From an uncultured virus (IMG/VR IMGVR_UViG_3300028393_000024) (taxonomy: Duplodnaviria > Heunggongvirae > Uroviricota > Caudoviricetes): a DNA stretch of 64,000 nt. The stretch's first letter is position 1. Each line of letters begins with the position of its first letter. Shown here in pieces: positions 28,075 to 49,617 of the stretch. The notes beneath the pieces were generated by a model, which was given only the letters and a program-made list of their open reading frames with translations, did no database searches and was not told the DNA's origin. The stretch lies in IMG/VR virus record IMGVR_UViG_3300028393_000024; one strand, 5' to 3'. The position numbers were made by a program, and so were the translations under genes.

Positions 28075-28304
28075 TGGAAAATATATTACAGGTTGAAGGA
28101 AATCCATCTCTAGTACGAGACTTGGCATCTAACGCAATTATTAATACGAATATATCAGAGTTTGAAACCTATCTTAGAAATAGAGATATTATGTCTGCTA
28201 GAGTTAATCAATTACAGACTCAGAACGAAAAGATAAATAGACTTGAAAATGATATCAACGACATAAAAACTATGTTACAACTGTTGATCAATAAGGAAAA
28301 TTAA
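28074..28304 (+). CDS. Small conserved T4-like phage protein with coiled-coil C-terminus
   Basis: VEGNPSLVRD..SNAIINTN motif; coupled to both neighbours by TAATG overlaps. Confidence 0.7.
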   Translation: MENILQVEGNPSLVRDLASNAIINTNISEFETYLRNRDIMSARVNQLQTQNEKINRLENDINDIKTMLQLLINKEN

Positions 28305-29602
28305 TGGCATCTATCACGCTACGCACTGTTAAAGGAAGTCCTCTTACCAATCAAGAGATGGACGACAACCTTAATAATATCAATGCTCAATTAAATCTTA
28401 CTTTACCTGCAGCGTCATATACCGCAGCCGATGTGCTAACGAAACTTAAAACAGTTGACGGAGTTGGTTCTGGTTTAGATGCAGATTTGTTGGATGGTTA
28501 TAATTCAGCAACAACTGCAACGGCAAACACAATTGTTCTTAGAGATGCCAATACAGATATTGCCGCAGGAGTGGTTCGTGCCACAACAGTAATTGCCAAT
28601 GTAACAGGTAATGTCACAGGTAATGTAACAGGAACTCTTACTGGAAATGCAACCAATGTTTCTGGCACTGTTGCTATTAATAATGGTGGCACTGGTGGTA
28701 GTGATGCAACTTCTGCTCGCTCAAACCTTGGACTTGGATCAATGGCAACTCAGAATAATTCTGGTGTTACTATTGTCGGTGGAACTATTACTGGTTTAAC
28801 AACTGCATTACCAATTGCATCTGGCGGTACAGGCGCAACATCAGCAACTGCAGTAAGAACAAACCTTGGTCTTGCCATTGGTACTGATGTTCAGCCTTTC
28901 TCAAACGAATTAACAGGTATCGCAGCAGCAACTAACACTGGTATCTATGTTCGTATTGGTGCTGCTTCAGTTACACAAAGATCAGTAGTTACTAATGGAA
29001 ATGGTATAGTTGTTACAAATGGCAGCGGAGTCGGTGGTAATATTTCAGTTGACTTACCTAGTTCTGGTTCAGTAACACTTTCATCTCTACAACTTAATGC
29101 TGGTTTAACTGTTGGAACAACAGGAACTTTCTCTGGCGCTGTTACACTTCCATCTATTTCAAAATCTGGTGGTAATGGTTCAGGTGATATTGGCCAAGAC
29201 GGAAATCGTTTCGGAACAATTTTTGGAACAGCTTCTACTGCTAAGTATGCCGACTTGGCAGAAAAATATCTTGCCGACGATACCTATGAAACAGGAACTG
29301 TTATTGTAGTTGGTGGCGAAAAAGAAGTTACTCAATCTTTCTTTGGAGACAAAGCAATCGGTGTTGTTTCTGCTGCTCCTGCTTACTGTATGAATGATGA
29401 GTTGAAAGACGGAACAAAGATAGCACTAAAAGGTCGTGTCCCAGTTAAAGTTGTTGGAGCAATTACCAAAGGCAAAAGTATTACTGCTGGTGATAATGGA
29501 ACTGCTGTTCAATGTGAACATCACTTCTATGGAGCGTTTGGCGTGGCTCTTGAATCCAGCGATACTGAAACTGTTAAATTAATTGAATGTGTGATTTTAT
29601 AA
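28304..29602 (+). CDS. Tail fibre-like protein with C-terminal intramolecular chaperone (peptidase G2/IMC-like)
   Basis: N-terminal LRTVKGSPLTNQEMDDN; SGLDADLLDG; GGTGATSA repeats; C-terminal YADLAEKY...IALKGRVPVKV. Confidence 0.7.
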   Translation: MASITLRTVKGSPLTNQEMDDNLNNINAQLNLTLPAASYTAADVLTKLKTVDGVGSGLDADLLDGYNSATTATANTIVLRDANTDIAAGVVRATTVIANVTGNVTGNVTGTLTGNATNVSGTVAINNGGTGGSDATSARSNLGLGSMATQNNSGVTIVGGTITGLTTALPIASGGTGATSATAVRTNLGLAIGTDVQPFSNELTGIAAATNTGIYVRIGAASVTQRSVVTNGNGIVVTNGSGVGGNISVDLPSSGSVTLSSLQLNAGLTVGTTGTFSGAVTLPSISKSGGNGSGDIGQDGNRFGTIFGTASTAKYADLAEKYLADDTYETGTVIVVGGEKEVTQSFFGDKAIGVVSAAPAYCMNDELKDGTKIALKGRVPVKVVGAITKGKSITAGDNGTAVQCEHHFYGAFGVALESSDTETVKLIECVIL

Positions 29603-29608
29603 TGTTTT

Positions 29609-30688
29609 TTGATGCATGTACAGCCGATAACATTCTATAAGACAGCAGCTGTCTCTAGTATACTCAAACCAAAAGATTTAGTAGTCTATCTAAAGACAAC
29701 TGAAACTTGCCAACTCAACTGCAAACACTGTTTCACTAATGGTGTCAACGGCAGAAAAGTTTACTTCAATCCCCAAGCAACAATAGACTGGTTTCACAAA
29801 CTCCATGCGGAATGTGAAACATTTGGATCAGGCGCAATTATATTTCATGGTGGAGAACCTTTTCTTGCACCACTTGAAGATATGTATAAAGTTTGGGAAG
29901 AAGTATCACCCCTTTGGCCAAATCTTGGTTGGTCATGTTCAACGAATCTCTGTTTCGCACTGACAGAGGAACATTTAAAATTCTTCTCAACTGTATTAAA
30001 GAATGGTTTCTGCACCAGCTGGGACAAGAACATTCGTTTTGAAAATGATAAACAAGAAGCACTTTGGAGAAAGAACCTTAGAACTCTTGTTGATCTTGGT
30101 CACAATATAACTTTGAACATTAGTCTAAACAAAGACTTGATGAAAATGGATACTCTTGAGTTGGTTACTTGGTTAAACACTCTTGGTGTAAACTATGTTC
30201 AGTTTGAGCGACTTACCCATGATGGAAGCGCAAATATAAACACTGACATCTTTCCCGAGAATAAAGAGATAGATGATTGGTTTCTTAGAATGCATGAAAC
30301 TTATCAATCAGTAAAGCCAGAGTACCATGATGTTTTGTTGGAAGGTGTATATTCCTCTGTCCTAAAAGGTGTTCATGGTGGTGTTCGTTGCAGAGACTGT
30401 GAGCAAAAGATCTTTACAATCAATGGCGATGGAACAATATCAGGTTGCCCAAATTCCGCTGTTGGTAACAGTTTTGGGGATATTGGGCAGTCTATAAATA
30501 GTTTATTAAGTGCTCCAGGAAGAATAAATAATATTACATGTGAGGTAGCTCGCGATCCTCGTTGTTACACCTGTAATGTTTTTGACATCTGTAATAGCGA
30601 CTGTCACCAATTGAGTTGGCAAGGCGATGTTTGTGCAGCACCAAGAACACTAATGCAAAGGTTAAAACATGACAACAGCTGGAACTAA
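29609..30688 (+). CDS. Radical SAM / SPASM domain enzyme (1)
   Basis: CQLNCKHC (CxxxCxxC) and FHGGEP, then a Cys-rich C-terminus CRDC...GCPN...CYTC..FDICNSDC...C. Start is TTG 29609 or ATG 29612. Confidence 0.92.
   Translation: MMHVQPITFYKTAAVSSILKPKDLVVYLKTTETCQLNCKHCFTNGVNGRKVYFNPQATIDWFHKLHAECETFGSGAIIFHGGEPFLAPLEDMYKVWEEVSPLWPNLGWSCSTNLCFALTEEHLKFFSTVLKNGFCTSWDKNIRFENDKQEALWRKNLRTLVDLGHNITLNISLNKDLMKMDTLELVTWLNTLGVNYVQFERLTHDGSANINTDIFPENKEIDDWFLRMHETYQSVKPEYHDVLLEGVYSSVLKGVHGGVRCRDCEQKIFTINGDGTISGCPNSAVGNSFGDIGQSINSLLSAPGRINNITCEVARDPRCYTCNVFDICNSDCHQLSWQGDVCAAPRTLMQRLKHDNSWN
30493..30500 (+). promoter_or_regulatory. Possible internal late promoter TATAAATA upstream of the CHxx-repeat gene
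   Basis: Exact consensus inside rSAM-1, about 170 nt before ATG 30669. It could be a chance match in AT-rich DNA. Confidence 0.35.
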
Positions 30689-31187
30689 TATAACAAAGGC
30701 AAACATCGTTGCCTCAATGGAAGCAGTTAGAAATACCTACAACTCAGGTATTGTTTGGGGTAGCAATGCTCAACCATTTCAATCAGATATTACTGGTGGA
30801 TCCACTTCTGGATATTCTACTCAATCTTTTGCTGGTGATATTTCCGACACAAACATAACTGCATCTACAATAACAAATAACTTTAGATCCTATGCTACCC
30901 TGCTATCGAGGATTCGTAATGTTCGTTTATTGAAGTGGTATCAGATTCAAGGCGATGTAAGAAATAGATTAGATTACGATGCCACAAATCTTACAAACTT
31001 AAATTCAAATTACCAGTGGAATGCTGATAACAGCGTTAACTCTGGAGAAACTGTTAATGCTGGAAATCTTGATGCCTTTGTAAACTATCTGTCAGCTAAC
31101 ATTAGTTCATACAGACAAACAACAGTGACAGTTGAAGAATTCTACTGCCACAGTAATTGCCATAGTAACTGCCACGGAAGTATTTGA
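30669..31187 (+). CDS. Putative rSAM substrate / precursor protein with C-terminal CHSN-CHSN-CHGS repeat
   Basis: 172-aa Ser/Thr/Asn-rich protein. Its only Cys and His residues are in the terminal YCHSNCHSNCHGSI. It overlaps the rSAM-1 stop. Confidence 0.7.
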   Translation: MTTAGTNITKANIVASMEAVRNTYNSGIVWGSNAQPFQSDITGGSTSGYSTQSFAGDISDTNITASTITNNFRSYATLLSRIRNVRLLKWYQIQGDVRNRLDYDATNLTNLNSNYQWNADNSVNSGETVNAGNLDAFVNYLSANISSYRQTTVTVEEFYCHSNCHSNCHGSI

Positions 31188-31948
31188 TGTATACTGTACC
31201 ATTTGATTCTGATACTTTGAAGAAAATTATAGTTGGAGAAATAACTTCTCCTGATATTGATTATGTTCAATCAAAGATCAAGGGTAAAAACTTCATAACA
31301 TATCTCAGCAATCTCAAGTATGAGAATCTTAATATCGATTTCTCAGATGTATCGCTTGATGAAAGAATAGAATTAGTTTCTGAGTATATTAGACACAATT
31401 CAACTTGTCACATTGAGCAGTTGGAAGCAACAGTTATTAAAGCACTGTTTCACTACAGAGGATATGAGTTATCTCTGGTTGACCAATCAGAAGATGACAA
31501 ACCATTTTTACACAAGTCTATATTATCGAATGATGAAATACAAGAGTTCGTTAAGATTGATATCAAATTAATTAAACAACTTGCAGATTTACTTGATGGT
31601 GTTCTTTTGTATGCAATTAAAAATCTAAACGATTACAAAGAAGAACTTGGCGATTTTGTAACGACCAATGTTATTGTAGAGAAACAAGAAGTTGGAAAAA
31701 CTTTTGTAAACTTCTTTGATAATCCAACATTTAATTGTCACTACTATGGAGCGATCCCTAAATTTGATGACATCAAGTATTTTGACCATTACTTTGACAG
31801 ACCAATTTACTCTGGTAGAACATTGATTAGTTACATAACAGTACCACAGTGTGTTATATTTCCACTATTGAAAATGATTATAGATGTAAAATTTACACCT
31901 GAACAATTAAACTCAATATTCAAAGAAGCCGATGCTACACTTATTTAA
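31184..31948 (+). CDS. Hypothetical protein in the rSAM cluster
   Basis: 254-aa ORF overlapping both neighbours; ATG at 31187. Confidence 0.75.
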   Translation: MMYTVPFDSDTLKKIIVGEITSPDIDYVQSKIKGKNFITYLSNLKYENLNIDFSDVSLDERIELVSEYIRHNSTCHIEQLEATVIKALFHYRGYELSLVDQSEDDKPFLHKSILSNDEIQEFVKIDIKLIKQLADLLDGVLLYAIKNLNDYKEELGDFVTTNVIVEKQEVGKTFVNFFDNPTFNCHYYGAIPKFDDIKYFDHYFDRPIYSGRTLISYITVPQCVIFPLLKMIIDVKFTPEQLNSIFKEADATLI

Positions 31949-32798
31949 TTCTTGCTATGTATATCCGTACATATTGTTTGATCCAACAAATAATTATTTG
32001 GTGGTAGGTGAAGACCATCTGAATCATCAGATAATTTCAAATAGTTTTTTCTACAATAATTCTACACCAAGAGAACCTTTTGCCAGATTAGATTCTTTTG
32101 AAACCTTTGCTGGATGTAACTTGCTAGATGCAACTGTCAACAACAAAGATAGATTTTTGATTTATACCGATGATGATAATTTCATTAAATTCTTCACGGC
32201 AAAAATGAAAACTCAAGTGGCAAACTTGAGCGAAGACTTCTTTCTTACAACGGCAAAGTTGTTTGCAGTTAAATTAAAAACAAGGGCAAAGTTACTTGCA
32301 ACTGATGACGCAAAACTAGAATTAAATAATCTTGCCGATAAATTCTTGGCACTAACTTCAATACCAGAAGTTGATGCTTTCTCACTCACACGTGCATGGG
32401 TCACTGCCAATGCTGGTATTGAGTGGAAATTTGCCAATGGTATTCTTGATAATATTCATGACATTGTTAATCGTAATGTGTACTCGTACTTTGATGAAGC
32501 AAAGGCACTTTATCTTTCCAGAAAACAAGGTGGCTGGGCTCTTGAAGAAACCAATCAGAAATATAAAACTTGTGCATCTATTGAAGATCTTTATTCGCAG
32601 ATGCGTAAAGAGATTATGATATTCACGGATTCTCTAATTTTACAGTACTACTACGATAGAGAAATGTTTAAGGATCCAAAGTTCTTACTACTACTTGCAT
32701 CCAATAAAGACATGGGTGATAAGATTGACCTTTGGTTGATTAGATGGTTTATGAAAATGTCTCAAGAACAAATTAAAGAATTGGACATAGTAGCATGA
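31932..32798 (+). CDS. Hypothetical protein in the rSAM cluster (paralogue of the next gene)
   Basis: 288-aa ORF starting MLHLFNSCYV with a later FLIYTD motif. Confidence 0.75.
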   Translation: MLHLFNSCYVYPYILFDPTNNYLVVGEDHLNHQIISNSFFYNNSTPREPFARLDSFETFAGCNLLDATVNNKDRFLIYTDDDNFIKFFTAKMKTQVANLSEDFFLTTAKLFAVKLKTRAKLLATDDAKLELNNLADKFLALTSIPEVDAFSLTRAWVTANAGIEWKFANGILDNIHDIVNRNVYSYFDEAKALYLSRKQGGWALEETNQKYKTCASIEDLYSQMRKEIMIFTDSLILQYYYDREMFKDPKFLLLLASNKDMGDKIDLWLIRWFMKMSQEQIKELDIVA

Positions 32799-33748
32799 TA
32801 TATCTTTTCGATAACTGTTATCTGTCAACAAAAAACATAATAGTTGAAACTGCCAAACAAGTATGGATCGGTTCTTTTGAGAATTTTGATGAGAAGTCTC
32901 TTGACATTTACAAGACATATACCGATATTACTCCAAAGAAATTAGACGACTTGTTTGCAGATATTCATAAGAATTTCTCAGATAAGAAAACTATTATATA
33001 CTGTGATGTTGATTATTTCCAGTATGTATATTCTATTTTCTTCAATGGTATTTTCAGTAAGGCAACTGTTCTTGAGTTGTATCAATACGATGCTCTCAAG
33101 GAAAACTATGGTCTTGCCGATACATATGGTCTGGTTGTAACTGGGCTCAGAGATATTAATCGTGTTACTTTGCCAGAAGAATTAAATTGGACCAGTGGTT
33201 CTTCAAAGTTCTCTGCTGATCTTGATACTCAAAGAGTTGAGATAGCATTTGCCAATGCGATTCAAGGTAACAAAAAGTCTTTGGCATTTTGTGTTGACAG
33301 AATTGATCAAATGTATGATGGCAGTCCAGGATTCTGGTCTAAGTTTGCAGAGCAAACTCTCCCTGGAATTATGTCCGATGAAGAATATACTATCGAGCAT
33401 TTATTGGACACCGAGTATATGGAAACATACCTTGATCAATTTAAGGTAAACGAGTTCCTTCCAAACAAGATTGTTCCAATCATCAATGATAAGTTTGGAT
33501 ATGATTATCATAAGCATTTCTTCACTGTTTTAAATAATGATGAAAACTATGAGGAATTCTTAAAACCTATACTAAAGATGAGCAAGAAACAGTTTATCGA
33601 GAAACGAATCCTAGATCCAAAGATTGCGGTAAATTACAACTTCATCTTTCCAAACATTTCCAACTTTGATTCTGTGAATCCAATTTTCTGGAATGCGATA
33701 TTAAAGAACCAAGACAATATAGAATGGCTCAAAAAGTATAAAGTGTAA
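32795..33748 (+). CDS. Hypothetical protein in the rSAM cluster (paralogue of the previous gene)
   Basis: 317-aa ORF starting MIYLFDNCYL with a later TIIYCD motif; ATGA overlap. Confidence 0.75.
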   Translation: MIYLFDNCYLSTKNIIVETAKQVWIGSFENFDEKSLDIYKTYTDITPKKLDDLFADIHKNFSDKKTIIYCDVDYFQYVYSIFFNGIFSKATVLELYQYDALKENYGLADTYGLVVTGLRDINRVTLPEELNWTSGSSKFSADLDTQRVEIAFANAIQGNKKSLAFCVDRIDQMYDGSPGFWSKFAEQTLPGIMSDEEYTIEHLLDTEYMETYLDQFKVNEFLPNKIVPIINDKFGYDYHKHFFTVLNNDENYEEFLKPILKMSKKQFIEKRILDPKIAVNYNFIFPNISNFDSVNPIFWNAILKNQDNIEWLKKYKV

Positions 33749-34800
33749 TGGAATTAATAATTAAACCAACTGAACTTTGTAATTTTAAATGTACCTTTTG
33801 CTCATCAACTAAACTTGTAGAAGATAGTGCCAGCACTCTTGACTTACAGCATGTTTTTGATTTTCTAAAGAGATTTCCAAATACAAATACAATAATTGTC
33901 AATGGTGGAGATCCACTAATGATGAAACCAGAGTATTACTTTAATATTCTTGCGTACATTGAAGAACACAAACTCCCAACAACTCTTGGATTCACAACTA
34001 ACCTTTGGGCATTCTACAAGAAACCAGAGATGTGGACTCCGCTGTTTAGACACCCAAGAGTTGGTGTTACTACAAGTTTTCAGTATGGGTTCGGTCGCAA
34101 GATTAATGAAAACAGAGTTTATACTGAAGCCGACTTTTGGAAAGTCAGTGATTTGTTTCTCAAAGAAGTTGGTTATCGTCCAGGGTTTATTGCTGTTATC
34201 TCTGAAGAGAATGAACATCATGCAATTAAACATGTTGAACTTGCCAAGAAAATGGATGTTCAGTGTAAGTTAAACTATGCCATGGCTTCTGGCGAACAGG
34301 ATAAACCATATCGCCTAAGTAAGATATATGAAGCATACCTAGAAGTGTATGAGAGAGACCTTTGGCACTGGGAATTTAACACAAAGCAGATGATGAGTCG
34401 TTTGAATAACATTGCCAATGTTTGTCCTCAAGCAAGAAACTGCGATGATCATATAAGAGCATTGAACCCAGAGGGAGATTACTACTCCTGTGGTTCTATG
34501 GGTGATGACAGAGAATATCCAATTAACTTTGTAAAGGAAGTTAAAGAAGGTGGTTTCTCTACTCCACTTCAAGATGCTCCAGAATTATATTCGCTGAAAG
34601 ATGAGTGTATTGGTTGCCCAATGTTTGCGATTTGTAATGGGTGTAAGAAAACAATTAAAGATTTAAAGAAACATGATATGGTTGAAGAGCACTGCTCACA
34701 TATGAAGCAGTTGGCTCCAAGAATTATTAAGATAAACAGTGAAATAGATTATGTCGAAGCAACTCAAAGAATCCATCAAATTCTCGTTCCTGAATATTGA
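33748..34800 (+). CDS. Radical SAM / SPASM domain enzyme (2)
   Basis: IIKPTELCNFKCTFC and NGGDP, then C-terminal CPQARNC...YSC...CIGCPMFAICNGC...HC. Confidence 0.92.
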   Translation: MELIIKPTELCNFKCTFCSSTKLVEDSASTLDLQHVFDFLKRFPNTNTIIVNGGDPLMMKPEYYFNILAYIEEHKLPTTLGFTTNLWAFYKKPEMWTPLFRHPRVGVTTSFQYGFGRKINENRVYTEADFWKVSDLFLKEVGYRPGFIAVISEENEHHAIKHVELAKKMDVQCKLNYAMASGEQDKPYRLSKIYEAYLEVYERDLWHWEFNTKQMMSRLNNIANVCPQARNCDDHIRALNPEGDYYSCGSMGDDREYPINFVKEVKEGGFSTPLQDAPELYSLKDECIGCPMFAICNGCKKTIKDLKKHDMVEEHCSHMKQLAPRIIKINSEIDYVEATQRIHQILVPEY

Positions 34801-36643
34801 TCTTCGTGTACCGATTCAAAGGTTACCAATTAATTGGTTGAACTTTAAGAATTACTACACGAAACATGGTAAATATTCAGACCGAGTAGTTTGGCAGAAA
34901 CCAATTCTCAATCTAGAAGGTTGGACATTTGAACAGATTGTGACTTACTATGACGAGCAGGATTCTGACATCTATGCTTTCTCTAGTTATCTCTGGAGTC
35001 ACATGGCTATTATGGCAGTTGCTCAAGAATTAAAAAAGCGTAATCCAAACAGAATTATTTTACTTGGTGGTCCACATCTTAATATTACTCATAATAATCT
35101 AGGATGGTTCATTAAGAATAAGTTTATCGATGCGATTTGCGAACCTACAAGTTATGGTGAGTGGTTCATTACTGATATTTTGAATCAGTTTGTAGAGGGT
35201 GATATAAACTACAAAGAAGTTTCCTTTGCGATCTATAAAAGTGGACGTGGCACAAGTCCTAATAAGATTGGGTTTGACTTTCCTGCAAGTTTAATTGCTG
35301 GCAATGAAGATATACTGTTTGAGTGCAAGAACATAGCACTTGACAGAAATGTACCTTTGGTTTTACCAATTGAGTTAACTCGTGGTTGTCCCTATGAGTG
35401 TGTCTTTTGCGAGTGGGGTGGTGGTATTGGTGGTAAGGTTATTCGTAAACCACTAGATATGATCAAGGAAGATCTAGACTGGATACCGCAGATCGGTATT
35501 GAGCAAGTTCAAATTCTTGATGCAAATTACGGAATATATCTGGAAGATGAGGATGTTTCCAAATATATAGAAACGATCAAAGATTATTCAGGTTTACCAA
35601 ACCATGTAGAGATATATGGAATGACAAAGTCCAAGCAAGAAAGACGCTGGGCAACCATTGAACCACTGGCACGAGCAAAGGTAGTTGAGCGATACAAGTT
35701 AAGTTTACAAACACTGAACAATGAAGTGTTAAAGAATATTAAACGAACAGATATTCCTCGCGAAAAAGACTTTGAGTTTGCTCAGTATCTGTTTGATACC
35801 TATGGTATTCGTTCTGACTTTGAATTTATGATGGGACTGCCTGGATATACCAGACAAGACTTCTATGATGAAGTAGATATACAGTACGAGTATGGTTATA
35901 ACCTTGAGAGATATCTTTGGTTATTCCTACCAGACTCACCTGCCTACTCACCTGACTATATCAAAGAACATAATATTAAAACTGAAAAGATATGTATCGG
36001 TAAGTCAAGAATGAATAGTTATGCTTTTGATGACGTAAATCTTTTCGGTGATTATCATATTTCCTCTGATCCAGCTTTTACCTCAGATGTTGAGTTTGTT
36101 GTTGAAGCCAATGGGTTTACAAGAAAAGACTTTACTGAGTTCTTTTTTATGAATTACTGGATCGTGAACAATATTGTTGAAGTTACCTTTACCGATGATA
36201 TTATAAAGCATAATGTAAATACTGGTAAACTTAAAACTCCATCTTTGGTGTTTAAGAAAATCTACGAAAAGATAAGTGAGCCAACAGAAAATAAATATGT
36301 GTTGGCAATGCAAGACTTAAATGCTCAGATGTATGATTTAATTGCTGGAAACAGAAAAGAAGTTGCAGACTACAAAGAATTTAATCTACCTAATACAACA
36401 GTATCAGTGGATTTTAAATATATTTACAAGTCTTGTATATATGTTTTTGAACAGGAATATATTGATTTTCTTTGTTCAGTCGGTGAGGAGTTGGGACTTG
36501 AGATTCCAAACGATATCGTTGAACAATTTACAACTGTTCTAAATAAGTACAGAGAATCTATTTCTCCAAAGTATGATAAGACCTATCAGATAAGAACCTA
36601 CTACGAAAATTTTATTAATGAGAAATATACAACAGTTACTTGA
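34751..36643 (+). CDS. Cobalamin-binding-domain (class B-like) radical SAM enzyme
   Basis: N-terminal YAFSSYLWS and IILLGGPH of the B12-binding fold, then ELTRGCPYECVFCEWG, ILDANYG, SLQT and MMGLPG. Confidence 0.85.
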   Translation: MSKQLKESIKFSFLNIDLRVPIQRLPINWLNFKNYYTKHGKYSDRVVWQKPILNLEGWTFEQIVTYYDEQDSDIYAFSSYLWSHMAIMAVAQELKKRNPNRIILLGGPHLNITHNNLGWFIKNKFIDAICEPTSYGEWFITDILNQFVEGDINYKEVSFAIYKSGRGTSPNKIGFDFPASLIAGNEDILFECKNIALDRNVPLVLPIELTRGCPYECVFCEWGGGIGGKVIRKPLDMIKEDLDWIPQIGIEQVQILDANYGIYLEDEDVSKYIETIKDYSGLPNHVEIYGMTKSKQERRWATIEPLARAKVVERYKLSLQTLNNEVLKNIKRTDIPREKDFEFAQYLFDTYGIRSDFEFMMGLPGYTRQDFYDEVDIQYEYGYNLERYLWLFLPDSPAYSPDYIKEHNIKTEKICIGKSRMNSYAFDDVNLFGDYHISSDPAFTSDVEFVVEANGFTRKDFTEFFFMNYWIVNNIVEVTFTDDIIKHNVNTGKLKTPSLVFKKIYEKISEPTENKYVLAMQDLNAQMYDLIAGNRKEVADYKEFNLPNTTVSVDFKYIYKSCIYVFEQEYIDFLCSVGEELGLEIPNDIVEQFTTVLNKYRESISPKYDKTYQIRTYYENFINEKYTTVT

Positions 36644-37331
36644 ACACGTAAATAGAATTCCCCATCTGCCATTAAATTTTAACTATGACGCAGAAAGAAT
36701 TGAACGTGAAGTTCGTGAGTGTCCCTTTCCGCTTATGCCCTATGAAGCAACCATGCAAGAAAATCATGGACATGAAAAGAGTAAGTGGAACAACTTGTCA
36801 CTGTTCAGCTACAATGGTGAAATCTTTTGCGATCGTTTAGAAGGTGCTGGTCCAGGAGAACTAGAAAGAATTTGGGGCAAAGTTCAACAGACTGGATTGT
36901 CTGAGTATATGCCCTATACCTATGAGGTTCTTGAACACCTTGGTGGTGGTAAAGCACTGGCAAGGATTGAAGAAATACTTCCTGGAACTGTGATGGGTTG
37001 GCATAATCATGTGTTTGAATTGTTTCATCCAGAAACAATGATGATTGTTCAGTTGCCCATAACTATACCTCAAAAATTTAAATACTCTGTGATGGCAAAC
37101 AAAGATTACAGAGGAATGGACTTTGGACTTTATACACCAAAGGTATATGAGTCTACTTACAATCCAGGAACACCAGTTATTTTTAATGCGCATCACTATC
37201 ATAATGTGTTTAACTTTGACAAAACAGGTGTTCGTTTAACGATTCGTTTCTTTGCTGATCTACGAGATGATAGAGTATATGATTTAGTACAGGATGCAGT
37301 GAATAATTATAAGGGAGATTACATTGAATAA
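36618..37331 (+). CDS. Cupin / Asp-Asn beta-hydroxylase-like Fe(II) oxygenase (1)
   Basis: WNNLSL, ARIEEILPGTVMGWHNH and FNAHHYHNVFN....RLTI follow a double-stranded beta-helix pattern. Confidence 0.7.
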   Translation: MRNIQQLLEHVNRIPHLPLNFNYDAERIEREVRECPFPLMPYEATMQENHGHEKSKWNNLSLFSYNGEIFCDRLEGAGPGELERIWGKVQQTGLSEYMPYTYEVLEHLGGGKALARIEEILPGTVMGWHNHVFELFHPETMMIVQLPITIPQKFKYSVMANKDYRGMDFGLYTPKVYESTYNPGTPVIFNAHHYHNVFNFDKTGVRLTIRFFADLRDDRVYDLVQDAVNNYKGDYIE

Positions 37332-38022
37332 TATTGCACATCTTCCTCTTGGTATAGATTTTGATCATAAAAAAATTCTAACAGAGATAGAGAATTTACC
37401 TCATTCGCTACGCAAATATCGTAGTGCACTATCAAATGGTAAAACCATGGAAATTCATGATGAGGAAAGATGGGATTCGTTGGCACTTTATAGCATTGAC
37501 GGAAAATCTGAATCTAATCCTGCAGAACCATGGACAGGGGACTTTATTAAAACTGAAGCACTTTATATGTGTCCTTACTTGGACAGTGTTTTACACTCTG
37601 TCGGTGGTGGTAAATTACTTGGAAGAATTGAGATATTTAACAAGAATGGATCTGCTGGCTGGCACAGTCATGTTATGGAAGCGGGACAACCAGAGTGGAT
37701 CTCTGTTTGGAATCTTCCACTTATTATGCCCAAGGAATCTAAGTTTAGTGTGCTTTCCTACATGGATTACAGAGGTTCAGATTACAACAAACCGATTAAA
37801 ATATATGAGCAGTGGTATGAACCTGGAAAGATGTACTGTTTAAACAGTTATCACTATCATAATGCCTTTAATTATGGTGATATGTCAATGATTATGATTC
37901 GATTCTATGTTGATACAAGAGACGAAAAAGTTAAAGAAATATTACAAAAAGCCATGGATAACTACACTGGAGAGTACATTCAGTCTTATGAAGAGTATAT
38001 AATCTCCACTGCAGTTACCTAA
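37324..38022 (+). CDS. Cupin / Asp-Asn beta-hydroxylase-like Fe(II) oxygenase (2)
   Basis: WDSLAL, CPYL, GRIEIF...GWHSH and LNSYHYHNAFN. Clear paralogue of the preceding gene; TTG start after GGGAG. Confidence 0.7.
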   Translation: MNNIAHLPLGIDFDHKKILTEIENLPHSLRKYRSALSNGKTMEIHDEERWDSLALYSIDGKSESNPAEPWTGDFIKTEALYMCPYLDSVLHSVGGGKLLGRIEIFNKNGSAGWHSHVMEAGQPEWISVWNLPLIMPKESKFSVLSYMDYRGSDYNKPIKIYEQWYEPGKMYCLNSYHYHNAFNYGDMSMIMIRFYVDTRDEKVKEILQKAMDNYTGEYIQSYEEYIISTAVT

Positions 38023-38032
38023 ATAATAAATA
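38019..38032 (+). promoter_or_regulatory. Tandem putative late promoters (CTAAATA, ATAAATA) restarting structural genes after the enzyme cluster
   Basis: CCTAAATAATAAATA at the cluster's 3' boundary. Confidence 0.55.
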
Positions 38033-38053
38033 TAGCTGATAATAGGAACGTAA

Positions 38054-38680
38054 ATGACCACAGCACTCACTACCAGAGTTTCCACCAACGCAACATTTGC
38101 TCCCACAGTAAAGGGATCGCCGATTTCAAGCGCAGAAATTGATAACAACTTTATCAGTTTGGCCACAAACAAACTAGAAATTGCCAATAACCTTGCTGAT
38201 TTACAGGATCCACCAACAGCAGCTACTAACCTTAGTGTTGGAACTTCTTCTCAGGCGCAGTTTGGATCGCTTGGTGTTGGTACTACAGGTTCTGCAACAA
38301 CTGGTGAGATTAGAGCAACCAATCAAATTACTTCTTACTACTCTGATGCTCGTTTAAAAACAAACATCAAAACAATCCCCAATGCTTTAGAAAAAGTAAT
38401 GCAAATTACAGGTGTTACCTACACAGGTAACAAACTGGCAGAATCTTTTGGGTTTGATCCAAACCAAAAACAAGTCGGTGTTCTTTCTCACGAAATTGAG
38501 GCAGTACTGCCTGAAGCAGTGAAGTCGGCACCCTTTGATATTATGCTTTTTGAACACACTGAGATGTCAAAATCTGGTCAAAATTTTAAAACTGTTCAAT
38601 ACGAGAAGCTGGTTCCTCTTCTTATAGAGGCAATAAAAGAACTAAATATAGAAGTAAAGAAATTAAAGGAGATTAAATAA
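38054..38680 (+). CDS. Short fibre protein with peptidase S74 intramolecular chaperone domain
   Basis: YYSDARLKTNI...GVLSHEIEAVLPEAV...VQYEKLVPLLIEAIKEL; N-terminal TVKGSPISSAEIDNNF. Confidence 0.85.
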   Translation: MTTALTTRVSTNATFAPTVKGSPISSAEIDNNFISLATNKLEIANNLADLQDPPTAATNLSVGTSSQAQFGSLGVGTTGSATTGEIRATNQITSYYSDARLKTNIKTIPNALEKVMQITGVTYTGNKLAESFGFDPNQKQVGVLSHEIEAVLPEAVKSAPFDIMLFEHTEMSKSGQNFKTVQYEKLVPLLIEAIKELNIEVKKLKEIK

Positions 38681-39225: not shown

Positions 39226-40515
39226 ATGGCTTACCTTGGTAATACACCAACTTCGCAAAGTTTTACTTCCAATATAGATTACTACAGTGGAACAGGTTCA
39301 GCTACAGCGTTTACACTGTCACGTTCAGTGGCCACGATCAATGATATTTTGGTTGTTGTTGATAACGTGGTTCAACGACCAACTGATGCTTATACACTGA
39401 GCGGAAGTGTTATCACCTTTACTTCTGCTCCACTGAGCGGAACTAACAATATCTATGTTCGTTATATGGCAACAACTACTCAGGTTGTTGCTCCTGCCGC
39501 AAACAGCGTTTCCTATTCTTCTTTGACCTCAGATATGCAAAGTAATATCTATGGGTTCAAGAATCGTATTATGAATGGTGGTATGGGTATTTGGCAAAGA
39601 GGTACTAGTTTTACTGTCGCTGGTTCTACTTTTGCATATACTGCAGATCGCTGGGTTGTATATTCTGCAAATAGTTCAACTACGGTATCAAGAAATTCAA
39701 GCATTCCAACTGGTACTGGATTTCCATATAGCGCACAAGTACAGCGCACTGCTTCAAACACAGGAACAAGTGCTGTATTTTTCCAACAAATAATTGAATC
39801 AAATAATATGCTTGATCTAGCAGGTCAAACAATAACATTAACATTCTGGGCAAAAGCAGGTGCCAATTTTTCATCAGGAAGCACTGGTGTATACATTAAT
39901 ACAGGAACTGTTGCTGATCAAGGAACCGCAGCTTCTCTTGGTAGTTGGACTGGATACACTTCTGCTGCTACATATACTTTTACGCCAACAACAACTTGGA
40001 CAAAATATACTGTAACTGCTAATTTAAGTTCAATTGCTTTAGAATTATCAACATTATTTTTCTATAACCCAACAGGTACTGCTGGAGCAGATGATTCTCT
40101 TTATATCACTGGTCTTCAGTTAGAAAAAGGCGCAACAGCAACTAACTTTGATTACAGACCTTATGGTGCTGAAAAACTTTTGTGTATGAGATATTATGAA
40201 AAAACATATCAAGATGATGAAGCACCTAATAGAGTTAATCCAAATACAGCTAATGCATTAACTGGTGTTGCAACAAGTACTACTAACATTGCTTGTCATT
40301 GGAAATTTTCAGTACCTAAGAGAACATCAGCAACAGTACAATATTATTCTTGGAATGGAACTGGTGCTGGTAAGTGGGCAAATTTAAGTAATACTGATGT
40401 TACAGTTTCAACACCGTGGGGTGCTGGTTATACTGGATTTGCTAGACTCGATAGTACGGGTCTTACTGCTGGTGCTTTTTATTGGGGCTTTGCGGCTGCA
40501 GATGCGGAGTTATAA
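39226..40515 (+). CDS. Putative receptor-binding / adhesin protein (CBM-like domain family, copy 1)
   Basis: MAYLGNTP anchor, KNRIMNG..IWQRGT, GLQLEKG..AT.FDYRPYG...CMRYY; ends AEL. Confidence 0.7.
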   Translation: MAYLGNTPTSQSFTSNIDYYSGTGSATAFTLSRSVATINDILVVVDNVVQRPTDAYTLSGSVITFTSAPLSGTNNIYVRYMATTTQVVAPAANSVSYSSLTSDMQSNIYGFKNRIMNGGMGIWQRGTSFTVAGSTFAYTADRWVVYSANSSTTVSRNSSIPTGTGFPYSAQVQRTASNTGTSAVFFQQIIESNNMLDLAGQTITLTFWAKAGANFSSGSTGVYINTGTVADQGTAASLGSWTGYTSAATYTFTPTTTWTKYTVTANLSSIALELSTLFFYNPTGTAGADDSLYITGLQLEKGATATNFDYRPYGAEKLLCMRYYEKTYQDDEAPNRVNPNTANALTGVATSTTNIACHWKFSVPKRTSATVQYYSWNGTGAGKWANLSNTDVTVSTPWGAGYTGFARLDSTGLTAGAFYWGFAAADAEL

Positions 40516-40517
40516 AA

Positions 40518-40679
40518 ATGTATAAATTATCAACACCTTGGAATGGTAAGTCTCTAGTTATTATTAGACTTAGTGACAATGCTTGTATTCCTATTGACAA
40601 TAATAACAGAGATTATAGGGAATACCTTAAATGGCTTGCTGAAGGTAATACACCACTCCCAGCAGATACGGAGAAATAA
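40518..40679 (+). CDS. Small fibre partner / chaperone (IPxDxxNxDY family)
   Basis: MYKL...IPIDNNNRDYREYLKWLAEGNTPLPAD; ATG follows the GGAG in the upstream stop region. Confidence 0.7.
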   Translation: MYKLSTPWNGKSLVIIRLSDNACIPIDNNNRDYREYLKWLAEGNTPLPADTEK

Positions 40680-41851
40680 TGGCAGTTACACAACTTGGTT
40701 CCAATGGACTTGCCGATAGCGCAATAACAACTACAAAGATTGCGTCAAGTGCAGTGGCAACTGCTTCACATGCTGATGCCAGTATTACTCCAGCCAAGAT
40801 GGCAAACTCTGGTAGAGAGTTGGGTATGCGCAATATGTTTATCAATGGCAACTTTGATATTTGGCAACGTGGAACATCCTACACATATCCAGGTGGTATT
40901 TGGCTTTATGGTCATGCTGATCGTTGGGGTGGTCACTTTGATGCTAGCATTGCTGGATCTTGGTCAAGAAGTACCAATGTGCCGAATAGTAATTCTACAT
41001 ACTCAATGCGTGTTGCTGGACAAACAAGTGGATCTTCTGCGTATCTAGATCAAAGAGTTGAGGCTGTTAATGGTAGAGCAGCACTTGCCGCTGGTTCCAT
41101 AACTGTAAGTGGTTGGATTAAACGAACAGGAAATGCTGCTTCTTCAGTTTCTTTAAATTTAATTACACCAACTGCTCTTGATAACTACGCATCCTATAAT
41201 TCGCTCGGTGCTATTTTCACTGCAAATAATACTATCAGTGGTAATGGTACTGCATCTGCCAGCACTTTAACACTTACAACAGCAGATACATGGTACTACT
41301 TTACTTTGACTGATACCAGCTGGGCATCGAGAACTGGTGTTGCCAATGGTGCTCAGGTTTTCTTTTCTTTTGGTGGACTATCAACTACTGGCAGCTACTA
41401 CGAAGTTTCTCAGATGCAACTAGAAGCTGGTCCAACAGCAACTCCTTTTGAGTATCGTTCATATGGTGCTGAGTTGGTACTATGTCAGAGGTATTATTCA
41501 AAATCTTATAACGACAATGTTGTTCCAGGCACAGCAACACAAGTTGGAATGGAAGTTGCTGGATTTCAAGGTGCTTCTGGACTTGGTGGTGCTTATGGAA
41601 ATGTTAAATTTCCTGTTAAAATGAGAACAACTCCAGGAACAATTAATATTTGGGATGGCGCAGGAACAGCAAATACACATTCATACACATATGGTGGTGC
41701 TGGTTCAGCGCAAGGAATTTCTAATGGAGGTAGTTGGTGGGGTTCTGGTACACCATTTAATACAAGTCATAGTGGTTTTTTTATGCGGCCAACAGGCAGC
41801 CAAGCAAGTGCTTGGAATTATGTTCACTATACGGCTGATGCGGAGTTATAA
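40679..41851 (+). CDS. Putative receptor-binding / adhesin protein (copy 2)
   Basis: RNMFINGNFDIWQRGT...QLEAGPTATPFEYRSYGAELVLCQRYY; ends AEL. Confidence 0.7.
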   Translation: MAVTQLGSNGLADSAITTTKIASSAVATASHADASITPAKMANSGRELGMRNMFINGNFDIWQRGTSYTYPGGIWLYGHADRWGGHFDASIAGSWSRSTNVPNSNSTYSMRVAGQTSGSSAYLDQRVEAVNGRAALAAGSITVSGWIKRTGNAASSVSLNLITPTALDNYASYNSLGAIFTANNTISGNGTASASTLTLTTADTWYYFTLTDTSWASRTGVANGAQVFFSFGGLSTTGSYYEVSQMQLEAGPTATPFEYRSYGAELVLCQRYYSKSYNDNVVPGTATQVGMEVAGFQGASGLGGAYGNVKFPVKMRTTPGTINIWDGAGTANTHSYTYGGAGSAQGISNGGSWWGSGTPFNTSHSGFFMRPTGSQASAWNYVHYTADAEL

Positions 41852-42046
41852 ATGTATAAATTAATAGGATATTATGATTACGATAACCACTTAAATAAAG
41901 TTGGTGAACTTAAAGTGGAAAAAAATGCTGTTCTCAGATTAAGAGACACCGCATATGTGTACTTCAATGAAGATAGTAAAGATTATCAAGCATACCTAAC
42001 ATGGGTCGAAGCAGGCAACGATCCTGAACCAGCGGACGAGGAATAA
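41852..42046 (+). CDS. Small fibre partner / chaperone
   Basis: KDYQAYLTWVEAGNDPEPAD. Confidence 0.7.
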   Translation: MYKLIGYYDYDNHLNKVGELKVEKNAVLRLRDTAYVYFNEDSKDYQAYLTWVEAGNDPEPADEE

Positions 42047-42047
42047 T

Positions 42048-43073
42048 ATGGCAATCTCAACAATAGGTACTAATGCTCTTGCCGATGGTACAGTTGGCAC
42101 TGCTGATATTCAAGACACAAGTATCACTCCAGCAAAGATGGCAAATAGTGGTGCAGAGTTTGGAATGCGCAATCGCCTTATCAATGGTGCGATTGGAATT
42201 TGGCAGAGAGGCACTTCTTTTACAAGTAGCGGTGTTTCAACATATACAGCCGATAGATTTTATGGTAATGCATCTTCAGGAACAATAACACGTTCTACTG
42301 ATGTTCCAGCGGGATTTACATATTCATTTAGCAATGCTGCTTCGTCTACCGCATATCCTGGAATTACTCAACGCATTGAGTCTGTCAATATTGCAGACTG
42401 CGCTAGTCAGGCAATAACTGTTTCATTTTATGTAAAACAAACTTCTGGTACTTCTAGTGCGCTTAATATTAATTTGGCTTATCCAACTGCAGTGGACAAT
42501 TATACATCTAGCACAACTATTGTTGAAACAAATGTTGTCGCCACCATGCCTGCATCATGGACTCGTTACACATTTACATACACATTACCTTCTAATGTTA
42601 CAAATGGAATGTCAATTGTTTTATTCATACCGTCTGCTTCGGTAACAGCAACATTCTTAATTACAGGAATACAACTAGAAAAAGGCAGTACCGCAACACC
42701 CTTTGAGTATCGTCCTTACGGTACTGAGTTGGCTTTGTGTCAGAGGTATTATTGGAAAACAACTGGTGGTTATGGAATTCCTTCAGTAGGAGCTGGAATG
42801 GCATATAATTCTTATACAGCAAGAATTCACATACAAAATCCTGTTCAAATGAGAGCTTCTCCTTCTTATAGTTTTTCAGGAAATTTATACATATTGCAAA
42901 GTAATGCGAACGGAATATTATTGAATGCTTTAGCTACAACTTATGCTGGATTATTATCATCAATGATTGATGTTAATGTTAGCGGCACTGGTTATTTTAA
43001 TGCTGGATATGCAACTCTCCTTTGTGTAGATAATTCAGGTAGTTATTATTTTGCTGGTTCTGCGGAGTTATAA
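42048..43073 (+). CDS. Putative receptor-binding / adhesin protein (copy 3)
   Basis: RNRLINGAIGIWQRGT...GIQLEKGSTATPFEYRPYGTELALCQRYY; ends AEL. Confidence 0.7.
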   Translation: MAISTIGTNALADGTVGTADIQDTSITPAKMANSGAEFGMRNRLINGAIGIWQRGTSFTSSGVSTYTADRFYGNASSGTITRSTDVPAGFTYSFSNAASSTAYPGITQRIESVNIADCASQAITVSFYVKQTSGTSSALNINLAYPTAVDNYTSSTTIVETNVVATMPASWTRYTFTYTLPSNVTNGMSIVLFIPSASVTATFLITGIQLEKGSTATPFEYRPYGTELALCQRYYWKTTGGYGIPSVGAGMAYNSYTARIHIQNPVQMRASPSYSFSGNLYILQSNANGILLNALATTYAGLLSSMIDVNVSGTGYFNAGYATLLCVDNSGSYYFAGSAEL

Positions 43074-43074
43074 A

Positions 43075-43230
43075 ATGACATATAAATTATATAAAGATTT
43101 TTTGGGAAATGAATGTTGTGTTGTATTAGATGGAAAAATGTCCATTCCATTTGACCCAGCTAACACTGATTACCAAGCATACCTAGCATGGGTTGCAGAA
43201 GGTAATGAACCACTTCCTGCCGACGAATAA
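43075..43230 (+). CDS. Small fibre partner / chaperone (below ORF-track cutoff)
   Basis: Manual translation, 51 aa: MTYKLYKDFLG...SIPFDPANTDYQAYLAWVAEGNEPLPADE*. Confidence 0.75.
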   Translation: MTYKLYKDFLGNECCVVLDGKMSIPFDPANTDYQAYLAWVAEGNEPLPADE

Positions 43231-43258
43231 ATACTAAAGAAACCTAAAGAGACTATCA

Positions 43259-44620
43259 ATGGCATATATTGGCTCAAGTCCAACCTCTACAGCATTCGTT
43301 ACGGATTCCTTTAATGGTAATGCGTCAACCACAGTATTCACAATGTCTGTGGCACCTGCCAATCCTTCCTCTGCGCTTGTTGCTATCTCAGGTGTTCTTC
43401 AGGATCCAACAACCTATGCTGTTAGCGGAACATCACTGACATTCTCTTCAGCACCACCACTTGGTACTGGTAATATTTCTGTTCGTTATCTAGGCATACC
43501 TGCTTCTGGTATAACAACAACAGCGTACCGAACTCTTACTGAGTTCACTGCCACTGCTGGTCAAACAACTTTCTCACCACCATCTTACACTGTTGGATAC
43601 ATTAATGTGTATCGCAATGGGTCACGACTTGGCACTGCTGACTTTACAGCAACCAATGGAACTTCTGTTGTGCTGAACAACGCAGCAGGTGTCAGCGATT
43701 TAGTTGCCATTGAATCTTTCTATATAACTTCAGTTACTAATGCGTTACCACAAACTGGTGGTGTAATTAATGCACCTTCAGGTGCTGTTGCGCTACAAGT
43801 TCAAAGCAATAGTGCTGTTGGTATATATCAAGACTCAAGTGCCAATGTGGGTATTGGTACTGCTTCACCTTTACAGAAACTTCATGTTGCAAGTGCTGCA
43901 AGTGCAGGTAATGTTTATCAATTAATTGATAGTAGTGCAACCACCAATGGATATAATGCTGCCACTCTATATAAGAACTCAGATCGTATGTTTAGGGTCG
44001 GTGCTCTTGGTGGTGTTCAAGGATTTACTGGTGGATACTTTGTTATCTATGATGAAACTGCTGGCGCATGGCGCATGGTTATTGATAACAGTGGTCGAAT
44101 GCTTGTTGGATTGAATTCAGCAAATGCTAGTGGTTCAAACTTTCAAGTTTCCCAAGGTGTTACATTCCCAGCTACTCAATCTGCATCTGCTGATGCGAAT
44201 ACGCTAGATGATTATGAAGAAGGTACATGGACACCATTTTGGAGTCCTGCGACAACTAATTTTGGTTCTATAACATATGCAGCAGACACTGGTGGAAGAT
44301 ACACAAAAATAGGAAGAATGGTATATGTTCAGTTTTTTATTCAAGTATCTGCTTATTCTGGTGGAAGCGGGTTTTTAAGACTGCAAGGATTTCCATTCAA
44401 TACAGATGGTGTGTCAAATCAAAATCAAGGAGTTACTGTTCATTTGGCAGGGTCATGGGGAACTAATACAATTAACAGTTTAGACCTTGGTGGTACATCA
44501 GCTAATGCTAAATATCGTACTGCTGCAAATGGTACTCTTGATAATGGTAATTTAAATGTAACTGATATGGCAACTAATTGTTTCGTGAGAGCATGTTTTT
44601 GCTATCAAACATCAACTTAA
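43259..44620 (+). CDS. Tail fibre / adhesin protein with DDYEEGTWTP domain
   Basis: MAYIGSSP anchor, NVGIGTASP repeat and ANTLDDYEEGTWTP...YTKIGRMV. AATAAATA late-promoter-like element at about 43226. Confidence 0.7.
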   Translation: MAYIGSSPTSTAFVTDSFNGNASTTVFTMSVAPANPSSALVAISGVLQDPTTYAVSGTSLTFSSAPPLGTGNISVRYLGIPASGITTTAYRTLTEFTATAGQTTFSPPSYTVGYINVYRNGSRLGTADFTATNGTSVVLNNAAGVSDLVAIESFYITSVTNALPQTGGVINAPSGAVALQVQSNSAVGIYQDSSANVGIGTASPLQKLHVASAASAGNVYQLIDSSATTNGYNAATLYKNSDRMFRVGALGGVQGFTGGYFVIYDETAGAWRMVIDNSGRMLVGLNSANASGSNFQVSQGVTFPATQSASADANTLDDYEEGTWTPFWSPATTNFGSITYAADTGGRYTKIGRMVYVQFFIQVSAYSGGSGFLRLQGFPFNTDGVSNQNQGVTVHLAGSWGTNTINSLDLGGTSANAKYRTAANGTLDNGNLNVTDMATNCFVRACFCYQTST

Positions 44621-44665
44621 ATTAACTAATCTGGATTGATTAGTCGGACACAAAAGGAAAATGAA

Positions 44666-44917
44666 ATGAGTTTAACAAAAGAACAAGCAATTGATAAAAT
44701 CGAAATTGTGGAAAATGGTATTCTACAAGTTCGTGAAATAACACGCATCATGGAAGATGGTAAGCAATTATCTTCTTCCTATCATCGCTGGTCATTCGCT
44801 CCAGGTAGCGATGTTTCATCAATGCCAGCAAATGTTCAAGCGATTGCTGCAGCTGCATGGACTACAGAAGTCATCGCTGCCTATGAAGCACAGGTTGCTG
44901 AACAAGCACCTAAATAA
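44666..44917 (+). CDS. Small fibre partner protein
   Basis: MSLTKEQAIDKIEIVENGILQVRE...SYHRW...VQAIAAAAWT, preceded by an AAGGA SD. Confidence 0.7.
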   Translation: MSLTKEQAIDKIEIVENGILQVREITRIMEDGKQLSSSYHRWSFAPGSDVSSMPANVQAIAAAAWTTEVIAAYEAQVAEQAPK

Positions 44918-44941
44918 TAGAGAATAATAAAGAGACCATAA

Positions 44942-47751: not shown

Positions 47752-47752
47752 A

Positions 47753-49101: not shown

Positions 49102-49102
49102 C

Positions 49103-49399: not shown

Positions 49400-49411
49400 A
49401 GGAAAAAAGAT

Positions 49412-49591: not shown

Positions 49592-49594
49592 ATA
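49587..49594 (+). promoter_or_regulatory. T4-type late promoter TATAAATA
   Basis: Exact consensus overlapping the stop codon, upstream of ATG 49618. Confidence 0.65.
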
Positions 49595-49617
49595 GAAAAA
49601 GATAAGGATAAACTATA

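Follow-up and report, generated by a model that had tools for sequence, protein, structure and literature searches.

A conserved Cys-His tail on a phage particle-type protein as a candidate substrate of neighbouring SPASM radical SAM enzymes

Introduction

Radical S-adenosylmethionine (SAM) enzymes of the SPASM class act on peptides and proteins, and they are known mainly for small secreted peptides and a few enzyme cofactor subunits. In ranthipeptide and sactipeptide systems, PapB/PapA of freyrasin among them, the SPASM enzyme is encoded beside a substrate with short, regularly spaced Cys units, and each repeated Cys unit receives one small thioether ring from PapB. Triceptide systems (Xye, Grr, Fxs), whose three-residue cyclophanes have a C-C bond from the ring to the beta carbon of residue +2, carry repeated aromatic- or His-x-X motifs near the C-terminus of the substrate, again beside a SPASM enzyme, while the His-Xaa-Ser system pairs His-x-Ser units with two radical SAM enzymes. 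In QhpD/QhpC and in the anaerobic sulfatase-maturing enzymes (anSME), the SPASM enzyme modifies a Cys in a protein that retains both the modification and its function. Two further families, TIGR04117 (Cys-Xaa-Xaa-Xaa repeat radical SAM target protein) and PF27846 (tSAM_targ_Cxxx_rpt), have Cys at every fourth residue and are, to our knowledge, predictions without known chemistry. Here we analyse a gene module in a 64,000-nucleotide stretch (the window) of an uncultured virus, IMG/VR record IMGVR_UViG_3300028393_000024. Its subject is a 172-amino-acid (aa) protein, hereafter the tail protein after its C-terminal tail, which ends in three C-H-x-[S/N] units and is encoded between a SPASM radical SAM enzyme (enzyme 1) and a conserved gene that we call unkA, with a second SPASM enzyme (enzyme 2) further downstream. 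We argue that the tail is probably modified by these enzymes and retained on a structural protein.

Our literature searches turned up no account of this tail, nor of what these phage radical SAM cassettes do. The term 'radical SAM' does not occur in a jumbo-phage overview (PMC7824862), and the radical SAM gene treated in a cyanophage paper (PMC12801897) is an unrelated one.

Results

All Cys and His of the tail protein lie in a C-terminal repeat

The tail protein has the C-terminus CHSNCHSNCHGSI, with the final residues ...TVEEFYCHSNCHSNCHGSI, also given as EEFYCHSNCHSNCHGSI. Its three Cys and three His all fall within residues 160-169 (nt 31146-31175), which bears out an earlier note on this DNA that had placed every Cys and His in the last 13 residues. 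By our own arithmetic, the chance of six residues all falling in the last 13 of 172 is (13/172)^6, about 2e-7, a figure computed before a strict period of four is demanded. The repeat is encoded by TGCCACAGTAAT TGCCATAGTAAC TGCCACGGAAGT, and the synonymous divergence previously seen in it amounts to just two synonymous base changes between CHSN repeats 1 and 2. Among the window's open reading frames (ORFs) of at least 40 aa there is no other (CHxx)n run, and scans against Pfam, PHROGs and NCBIfam gave no family for the protein.

Ser, Thr and Asn together make up 36.6% of the residues, in agreement with the earlier description of a body rich in these three. The motifs AGTNITKANI, DTNITASTI and GETVNAGNL are all present, as had been said, and each immediately precedes a helix in the AlphaFold model; we found no evidence that they are related to one another, and no support for the claim that the body motifs resemble neighbouring structural proteins.

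The run C-H-S-N-C-H can also be read as CX3CH, and variant haem motifs such as CX3CH exist. We considered and rejected the idea that the overlapping C-x3-C-H motifs are covalent attachment sites for c-type haem: no signal peptide is seen at the N-termini of the tail proteins, Pfam and NCBIfam scans detect no haem-lyase gene in the module, and haem attachment would explain neither the first His of each unit nor the Ser/Asn at position 4.

The tail is the best-conserved part of a divergent family

A word-indexed search at E<=0.01 returned 263 homologues of the tail protein, and all 120 of 120 among the matches listed (62-96% identity) end in C-H-x-x-C-H-x-x-C-H-G-S-[I/L]. An exhaustive search of 50%-identity representatives at E<=0.001 gave 155 family clusters. 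In the best 150 of these 155, CHxxCHxxCH is present in 123 representatives, and in 26 the third Cys is missing or the tail is otherwise variant. Most members of the family end in ...C-H-G-S-R-G-R-R (the RxRR tail), whereas the window's subfamily ends in C-H-G-S-[I/L].

At the residue level, C160, H161, C164, H165, C168 and H169 are invariant in our alignment A1, in which the bodies diverge down to 24% identity. That alignment includes three jumbo-phage homologues (24-30% identity), and the six Cys/His are among its mere 11 invariant columns. At the DNA level, 14 distinct versions of the tail occur in 22 loci of the window's subfamily; TGC and TGT, and likewise CAC and CAT, interchange synonymously, and none of the six Cys/His codons changes its amino acid. 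The earlier note had treated absence of the repeat from homologues as the finding that would speak against its proposal; that objection falls away because, as judged from these alignments, no other part of this greatly diverged family is as well conserved as the tail.

The remaining two positions of each unit are also constrained. In the 117 tails of canonical form, a small residue (S, A, T or G) occupies position 3, and S or N occupies position 4 in 115, 112 and 109 of them for the three units, respectively. H-x-[S/N] occurs three times in 122 of the 150 tails and twice in 26, so that 148 hold two or three triads, and the triad is retained even in tails that lack the third Cys. The attention that had been drawn to His-x-Ser/Asn was thus well placed: the triad outlasts the loss of Cys.

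Six soft ligands within 10 residues, all invariant, invite another explanation, namely an unmodified metal- or Fe-S-binding tail (Zn, Fe, Ni or Cu, possibly with several chains on an oligomer axis), with the enzymes acting on some other substrate such as the fibre proteins. Phage fibres and spikes do use His-x-His metal sites, as in T4 gp37 and the P2-type spikes. We regard such a site as unlikely overall, and as the main rival to a modified tail. It leaves the strict S/N at position 4 unexplained, because S and N are poor metal ligands, and it does not account for the retention of H-x-[S/N] when Cys is lost.

Enzyme 1 and unkA accompany the tail gene across phages

In the window's subfamily, enzyme 1 lies directly upstream of the tail gene in 23 of 23 viral contig loci, a set that includes the window's own record, and unkA is present in 20 of them. 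Wherever the DNA reaches, the order is kept: fibre, enzyme 1, tail protein, unkA, unkB, unkC, enzyme 2, B12 enzyme, hydroxylase(s) and S74 fibre. Homologues of enzyme 1 at 39-50% identity were found in 15 jumbo-phage records. In the jumbo phages pPa_SNUABM_DT01 (Pseudomonas), RSL2 (Ralstonia) and Atu_ph07 (Agrobacterium), the gene after enzyme 1 encodes a protein ending in ICHTSCHTSCHSARGRR, VCHSSCHTSCHGSRGRR or FCHSSCHASCHNSRSRR; all three, on inspection, have a JmjC-like cupin gene upstream of enzyme 1 and an unkA homologue downstream of the tail gene.

We then located RxRR tails in viral contigs with the degenerate DNA pattern (CHxx)3-xx-RxRR-stop, which matched at least 123 stretches; the locus counts given here come from the DNA of 80 loci, corresponding to 77 distinct ones. 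Enzyme 1 is directly upstream of the tail gene in 55 of the 77 and elsewhere in the locus in 8 more, and unkA follows the tail gene directly in 52. The conserved core of the module contains no other gene that could plausibly encode a substrate. An unmodified metal site would leave this near-universal coupling to a SPASM gene unexplained, and it would require a different substrate in a core module that offers no other conserved candidate.

The other 14 loci have no enzyme gene within 6 kb, as the metal site would allow. Five of these records were searched whole: in three, a cupin gene and three radical SAM genes lie at a distance of more than 10 kb; the remaining two records have a completeness of 11% and 22%. 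Thirteen of the 14 loci encode short proteins (about 125-140 aa), arranged as tandem pairs in 12.

We also observed that the tandem short proteins have a different body, with QLRTFD near the N-terminus, and the same CHxSCHxSCHxSRGRR end (in our locus numbering L027:2523-3286, L052, L060, L061, L065, L081, L086, L090, L093, L101, L104 and L106). The linkage of unkA to the tail gene is as tight as that of enzyme 1. In the RSL2 module, the 'hypothetical' ORF071 (L003:13005-13964) ends in C-x2-C-x5-C, resembling a SPASM remnant, and has no radical SAM motif; to judge from these features it may be a degenerate enzyme.

Oxygenase genes differ between the two tail types. A JmjC_2/Cupin_2 gene precedes enzyme 1 in 52 of the 77 RxRR-tail loci, directly so in the jumbo phages, versus none of the 23 loci of the window's subfamily; hydA-type genes, in turn, occur in 7 of those 23 loci, which lack the RxRR end, and in none of the 77. 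This complementarity hints that the oxygenases act on residues after the repeats. Carried further, it would mean that oxygenases (JmjC-like cupin, Asp/Asn-hydroxylase-like or 2-oxoglutarate-dependent) are the main modifiers of the tail, hydroxylating His, Asn or Arg, and that another step or substrate is left to the radical SAM enzymes. We find this improbable. The distribution is weak evidence because it reflects essentially one phylogenetic split, no oxygenase shows as tight or as widespread a linkage to the tail gene as the SPASM enzymes do, and hydroxylation is also compatible with SPASM modification as an added step.

Both SPASM enzymes stand outside the catalogued maturase families

Enzyme 1 has the CxxxCxxC motif together with a C-terminal seven-Cys motif, the two hallmarks of SPASM enzymes. 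Across 62 sequences, Cys 34, 38 and 41 of the former and Cys 264, 280, 319, 322, 328, 332 and 342 of the SPASM region are invariant, and C261 is present in at least 90%. Its match to the TIGR04085 SPASM domain (E 2.2e-4, 21.6 bits) falls just under the cut-off of 27. Matches of both SPASM enzymes to the DynA, DarE, PapB, anSME and HxsC models are weak and all lie far below their cut-offs. By these scores, both SPASM enzymes lie outside every catalogued maturase family.

The comparison with each described system shows both likeness and distance. PapB is a weak full-length match of enzyme 1, at 25.1 bits against a cut-off of 340. The ranthipeptide unit is C-x3-D, unlike the C-H-x-[S/N] unit here, and the tail contains no Asp. 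Moreover, a PapA-type substrate is a small secreted peptide, whereas here the candidate substrate is a folded 172-aa protein that is apparently kept, and in a phage. The tail shares with triceptide substrates the repeated His-x-X near the C-terminus beside a SPASM enzyme; the YhhB, FxsB and AmcB maturase models, however, reach only 18.7-21.7 bits against cut-offs of 370-445, and a conserved Cys precedes every His here, which triceptides do not need. With respect to the His-Xaa-Ser system, enzyme 2 matches HxsC in the radical SAM core only (30.7 bits against a cut-off of 267.9), an NCBIfam scan of the module gave no match to HxsA, HxsB or HxsD, and the tail differs in that its period is 4 and every unit includes a Cys.

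With the anSME model the scores are 19-32 bits, the cut-off being 349. The RxRR tail end C-H-x-S-R loosely resembles the sulfatase motif C-x-P-x-R, whereas the window's tail ends in CHGSI without Arg, and no amine dehydrogenase or sulfatase genes lie near the module. TIGR04117, with a cut-off of 50 bits, does not match the window protein at E<=0.1 and gives 14.5 bits for P0225, a relative with five repeats. PF27846 is found on 25-40% of the members of nearby Atlas clusters, mostly viral (feature score 0.83, TM 0.41), which we take as a lead only.

The tail is predicted to be flexible and occurs on unrelated bodies

An AlphaFold2 model of the tail protein, built on a 144-sequence alignment, shows an alpha/beta body with a predicted local distance difference test (pLDDT) score of 86.2 and a predicted template modelling (pTM) score of 0.79. 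In the model the tail looks like a flexible, exposed end, because the pLDDT drops to 57 and 44 for residues 161-172, following the last strand. Foldseek against the PDB gave no solved fold at E<=0.001. A wide VIA-align search gave no convincing match either (best Z 5.4, with TssK/baseplate rows at Z 4.2-4.7 only), and the matches in BFVD are uncharacterised phage proteins only, the Atu_ph07 homologue among them.

A profile of the body only recognises 54 of 100 tail-bearing ORFs (three contigs being counted twice) and misses 46. The missed ones comprise all short tandem proteins, tandem pairs of 247-309 aa and single proteins of 217-434 aa. In one representative of 453 aa, a Gly-rich N-terminal extension precedes body and tail. 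The occurrence of the same tail on what appear to be unrelated bodies fits a portable module for recognition by the enzymes.

These observations bear on whether the tail protein could be a classical ribosomally made and post-translationally modified peptide (RiPP) precursor, in which the 160-residue body is a long leader and a 13-residue core is released as a bioactive or metal-binding peptide. The core is indeed C-terminal and encoded beside SPASM enzymes, as in many RiPP clusters. Nevertheless, the body is modelled as a confident globular fold, the tail sits on several different bodies of up to 453 aa, Pfam, PHROGs and NCBIfam scans found no protease or exporter/transporter family among the module genes, and the Atu_ph07 homologue is reported in particles, as described below. 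A released peptide is therefore a very improbable outcome.

A homologue is listed among the virion proteins of Agrobacterium phage Atu_ph07

The Atu_ph07 gene next to enzyme 1 encodes a protein with a translated mass of 31,894 Da; gp170 (31.89 kDa) of the published virion table is therefore the tail protein homologue. There, gp170 is listed with 8 unique peptides and 35% coverage (Table S5, PMC6102473), in bands 1-9 with its maximum in band 1 (PMC6102473). According to the same table, the largest Atu_ph07 proteins peak in bands 1-2 and other proteins of 29-32 kDa in bands 7-8 (PMC6102473). We infer that gp170 runs far above its mass, because it peaks in band 1 while similar-sized proteins are found in bands 7-8. 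Such migration would fit covalent linkage or a very stable oligomer, the latter also being compatible with an unmodified metal site, and proves neither.

The radical SAM enzymes gp171, gp168 and gp165 are absent from the table, as are gp169 and gp172 (PMC6102473). By contrast, gp176 is listed (PMC6102473), and its C-terminus matches that of the fibre-like protein encoded upstream of the window's module.

Related loci occur in Bdellovibrionota-titled records

The RxRR-tail DNA pattern also matched 47 stretches in bacterial contigs drawn from one genome per species. Eight of these have no ORF and are apparent chance matches, and the other 39 encode tail proteins. Records titled Bdellovibrionota account for 27 of the 39 loci, on contigs of up to 2.84 Mb. 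Genes for enzyme 1, unkA and enzyme 2 lie nearby in most of these loci, and the body profile matches 34 of 42 proteins. Among the five Bdellovibrionota loci that we examined, S74-chaperone fibre genes flank the module in two (L163 and L183), two others have a signal peptidase II gene beside it (L175 and L196), and no capsid or baseplate family is found within 5 kb of the module in any. These loci may be bacterial or prophage-borne. Examples of the tail genes, in our numbering of the bacterial-contig stretches (L153-L199), are L163:5001-5648, L175:5001-5690 and L196:5001-5699.

The module sits in a baseplate and tail-fibre region

In the T4-like myovirus to which it belongs, the window covers the region of the baseplate and tail fibres, with genes for a gp32-like single-stranded DNA-binding protein, the tail tube, the baseplate hub and wedge, a phrog_358 protein of 2186 aa and many fibres. 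The tail gene stands within a co-directional block of overlapping genes, with overlapping starts and stops on both its sides (Table 1). As a small correction, the start of unkA is most likely the ATG at 31187, which overlaps the TGA stop of the tail gene by one base.

Table 1 Features of the module and its borders in the window
Feature	Position	Strand	Evidence
Tail-fibre-like protein, directly upstream of the module	28304..29602	+	PHROG tail-fibre families; C-terminal part matches Atu_ph07 gp176
Radical SAM enzyme 1, SPASM type; 20-nt overlap with the tail gene start	29609..30688	+	phrog_1802, E 2.1e-55
Tail protein, folded alpha/beta body (residues 1-160) and flexible C-terminal tail (predicted)	30669..31187	+	Homologues, AlphaFold2
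Tail C-H-S-N-C-H-S-N-C-H-G-S-I, three C-H-small-[S/N] units	31146..31184	+	Alignment, codon variation, logo
unkA, conserved, phrog_20767; start overlaps the tail gene stop codon	31187..31948	+
unkB, no family found; order conserved in related loci	31932..32798	+
unkC, conserved place in the module order	32795..33748	+
Radical SAM enzyme 2, SPASM type	33748..34800	+	Pfam Radical_SAM 8.7e-09; phrog_1802 5.5e-55
B12-binding radical SAM enzyme, C-methyltransferase-like	34751..36643	+	Pfam Radical_SAM and B12-binding; NCBIfam KedN5 E 5.6e-35, below cut-off
hydA, cupin, Asp/Asn beta-hydroxylase-like	36618..37331	+	PF05118, E 4.6e-4, just below cut-off
hydB, hydA paralogue	37324..38022	+	35% identity to hydA (tblastn)
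Short fibre, S74 intramolecular chaperone domain, directly downstream of the module	38054..38680	+	PF13884, E 1.6e-14

Enzyme 2 is the most conserved gene of the module, with 87-92% identity in related loci and 50-60% against the jumbo-phage copies. The AlphaFold2 model of unkA is confident (pLDDT 87.5); Foldseek found no known fold for it, the best VIA score was Z 3.2, and an Atlas search returned low-feature-count neighbours only. We considered paralogy of unkB and unkC and rejected it: BLASTP found just the 10-residue N-terminal motif (E 0.11), and M-x-x-L-F-[ND]-x-C-Y at the N-terminus is the only feature that the two proteins have in common.

Three metatranscriptomic libraries labelled as lake water contain contigs that match parts of the module region (28304-38680), the tail gene included, at 99% identity or more; contigs from an RNA library are no proof of transcription, as DNA may be present, and the module parts they leave uncovered carry no meaning. 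Additionally, seven paralogous fibre genes with a phrog_4492 C-terminal domain start at 39226, 40679, 42048, 46630, 47983, 53311 and 54587 (window 39226-55567). At least two of them are followed by small ORFs (about 40518-40679 and 41852-42046) with a MYKL start and the motif DY-x-x-YL-x-W-x-x-x-GN-x-P-x-PAD, and these may encode fibre assembly factors.

Discussion

We consider a RiPP-like maturation at the scale of a whole protein to be the probable explanation of these loci: the enzymes would crosslink or otherwise modify the tail, which would stay on a structural protein. We favour a retained substrate tail because the tail is invariant, exposed and portable, its gene is coupled to SPASM enzymes, no other candidate substrate is present, and a homologue is listed in virions without the enzymes. 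The core idea of the earlier note, a particle-type body whose tail is a radical SAM substrate, thereby gains comparative evidence from conservation, SPASM linkage and the virion homologue; the modification itself, the choice among chemistries and the placement at a 'tip' gain none.

In this explanation, the tail protein would belong to the phage adsorption apparatus in a structural or accessory capacity, and the infected cell would translate it together with enzyme 1. Its exposed tail of three C-H-small-[S/N] units would be the substrate of the phage's own SPASM enzymes, and in each unit these would probably remove a hydrogen from the Ser/Asn position. By analogy with described chemistries, the strictness of S/N at position 4 suggests that this residue supplies the attacked carbon, which would then be joined to the Cys sulfur, as in the thioethers of ranthipeptides and sactipeptides, and/or to the His ring, as in a three-residue cyclophane. 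Further decoration may come from the B12 radical SAM enzyme and the hydroxylases. Once matured, the tail would remain on the protein and be built into the particle, where its end may be rigid, protease-resistant and possibly metal-binding or covalently linking. In this scheme, it is the tail modification itself, the acting enzyme, the chemistry and the role in the particle that we infer.

Several observations weigh against a modified tail. Runs of Cys and His are well known as metal-binding motifs and could function unmodified, and 14 of the 77 RxRR-tail loci have no enzyme gene within 6 kb. The third Cys is absent from 26 of the 150 tails, and therefore not all three Cys are essential; one further family member of the 150, P0264, bears no Cys/His tail. 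For every curated maturase family, the scores of both SPASM enzymes fall far short of the cut-off, and no known chemistry can therefore be transferred to them; nor can a leader-binding domain be recognised in the enzymes. The evidence for presence in particles derives from a single distant relative, gp170, with 24% identity to the window protein, and its anomalous migration has other possible causes, for example stable oligomers or aggregation. When enzyme 1 and the tail protein, both as alignments, were put into a complex prediction, the outcome was 'no answer' (score 0.01), which weighs neither way.

A modified, retained tail would nonetheless have consequences beyond this locus. If the explanation is true, SPASM enzymes mature a structural component of virus particles through a C-H-x-S/N motif, and a new type of crosslink could be revealed. 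The system is large: it comprises at least 155 clusters at the 50% identity level, RxRR-type tails occur in at least 123 viral stretches, and the module takes about 8 kb of the phage host-recognition region. It could also explain the radical SAM cassettes in pelagimyophage and jumbo-phage genomes. We put forward a wider picture much more tentatively, as a possibility that we would not yet bet on: a tail maturation system common to T4-like phages, jumbo phages and predatory Bdellovibrionota, in which SPASM enzymes, hydroxylases and a B12 methylase would turn a portable tag into a crosslinked, possibly metal-loaded or linking structure on the cell-attachment apparatus. If this holds, viruses and predatory bacteria both use chemistry of the peptide-antibiotic type for their host-binding machinery, and the tail would provide a directly testable link from protein chemistry to adsorption.

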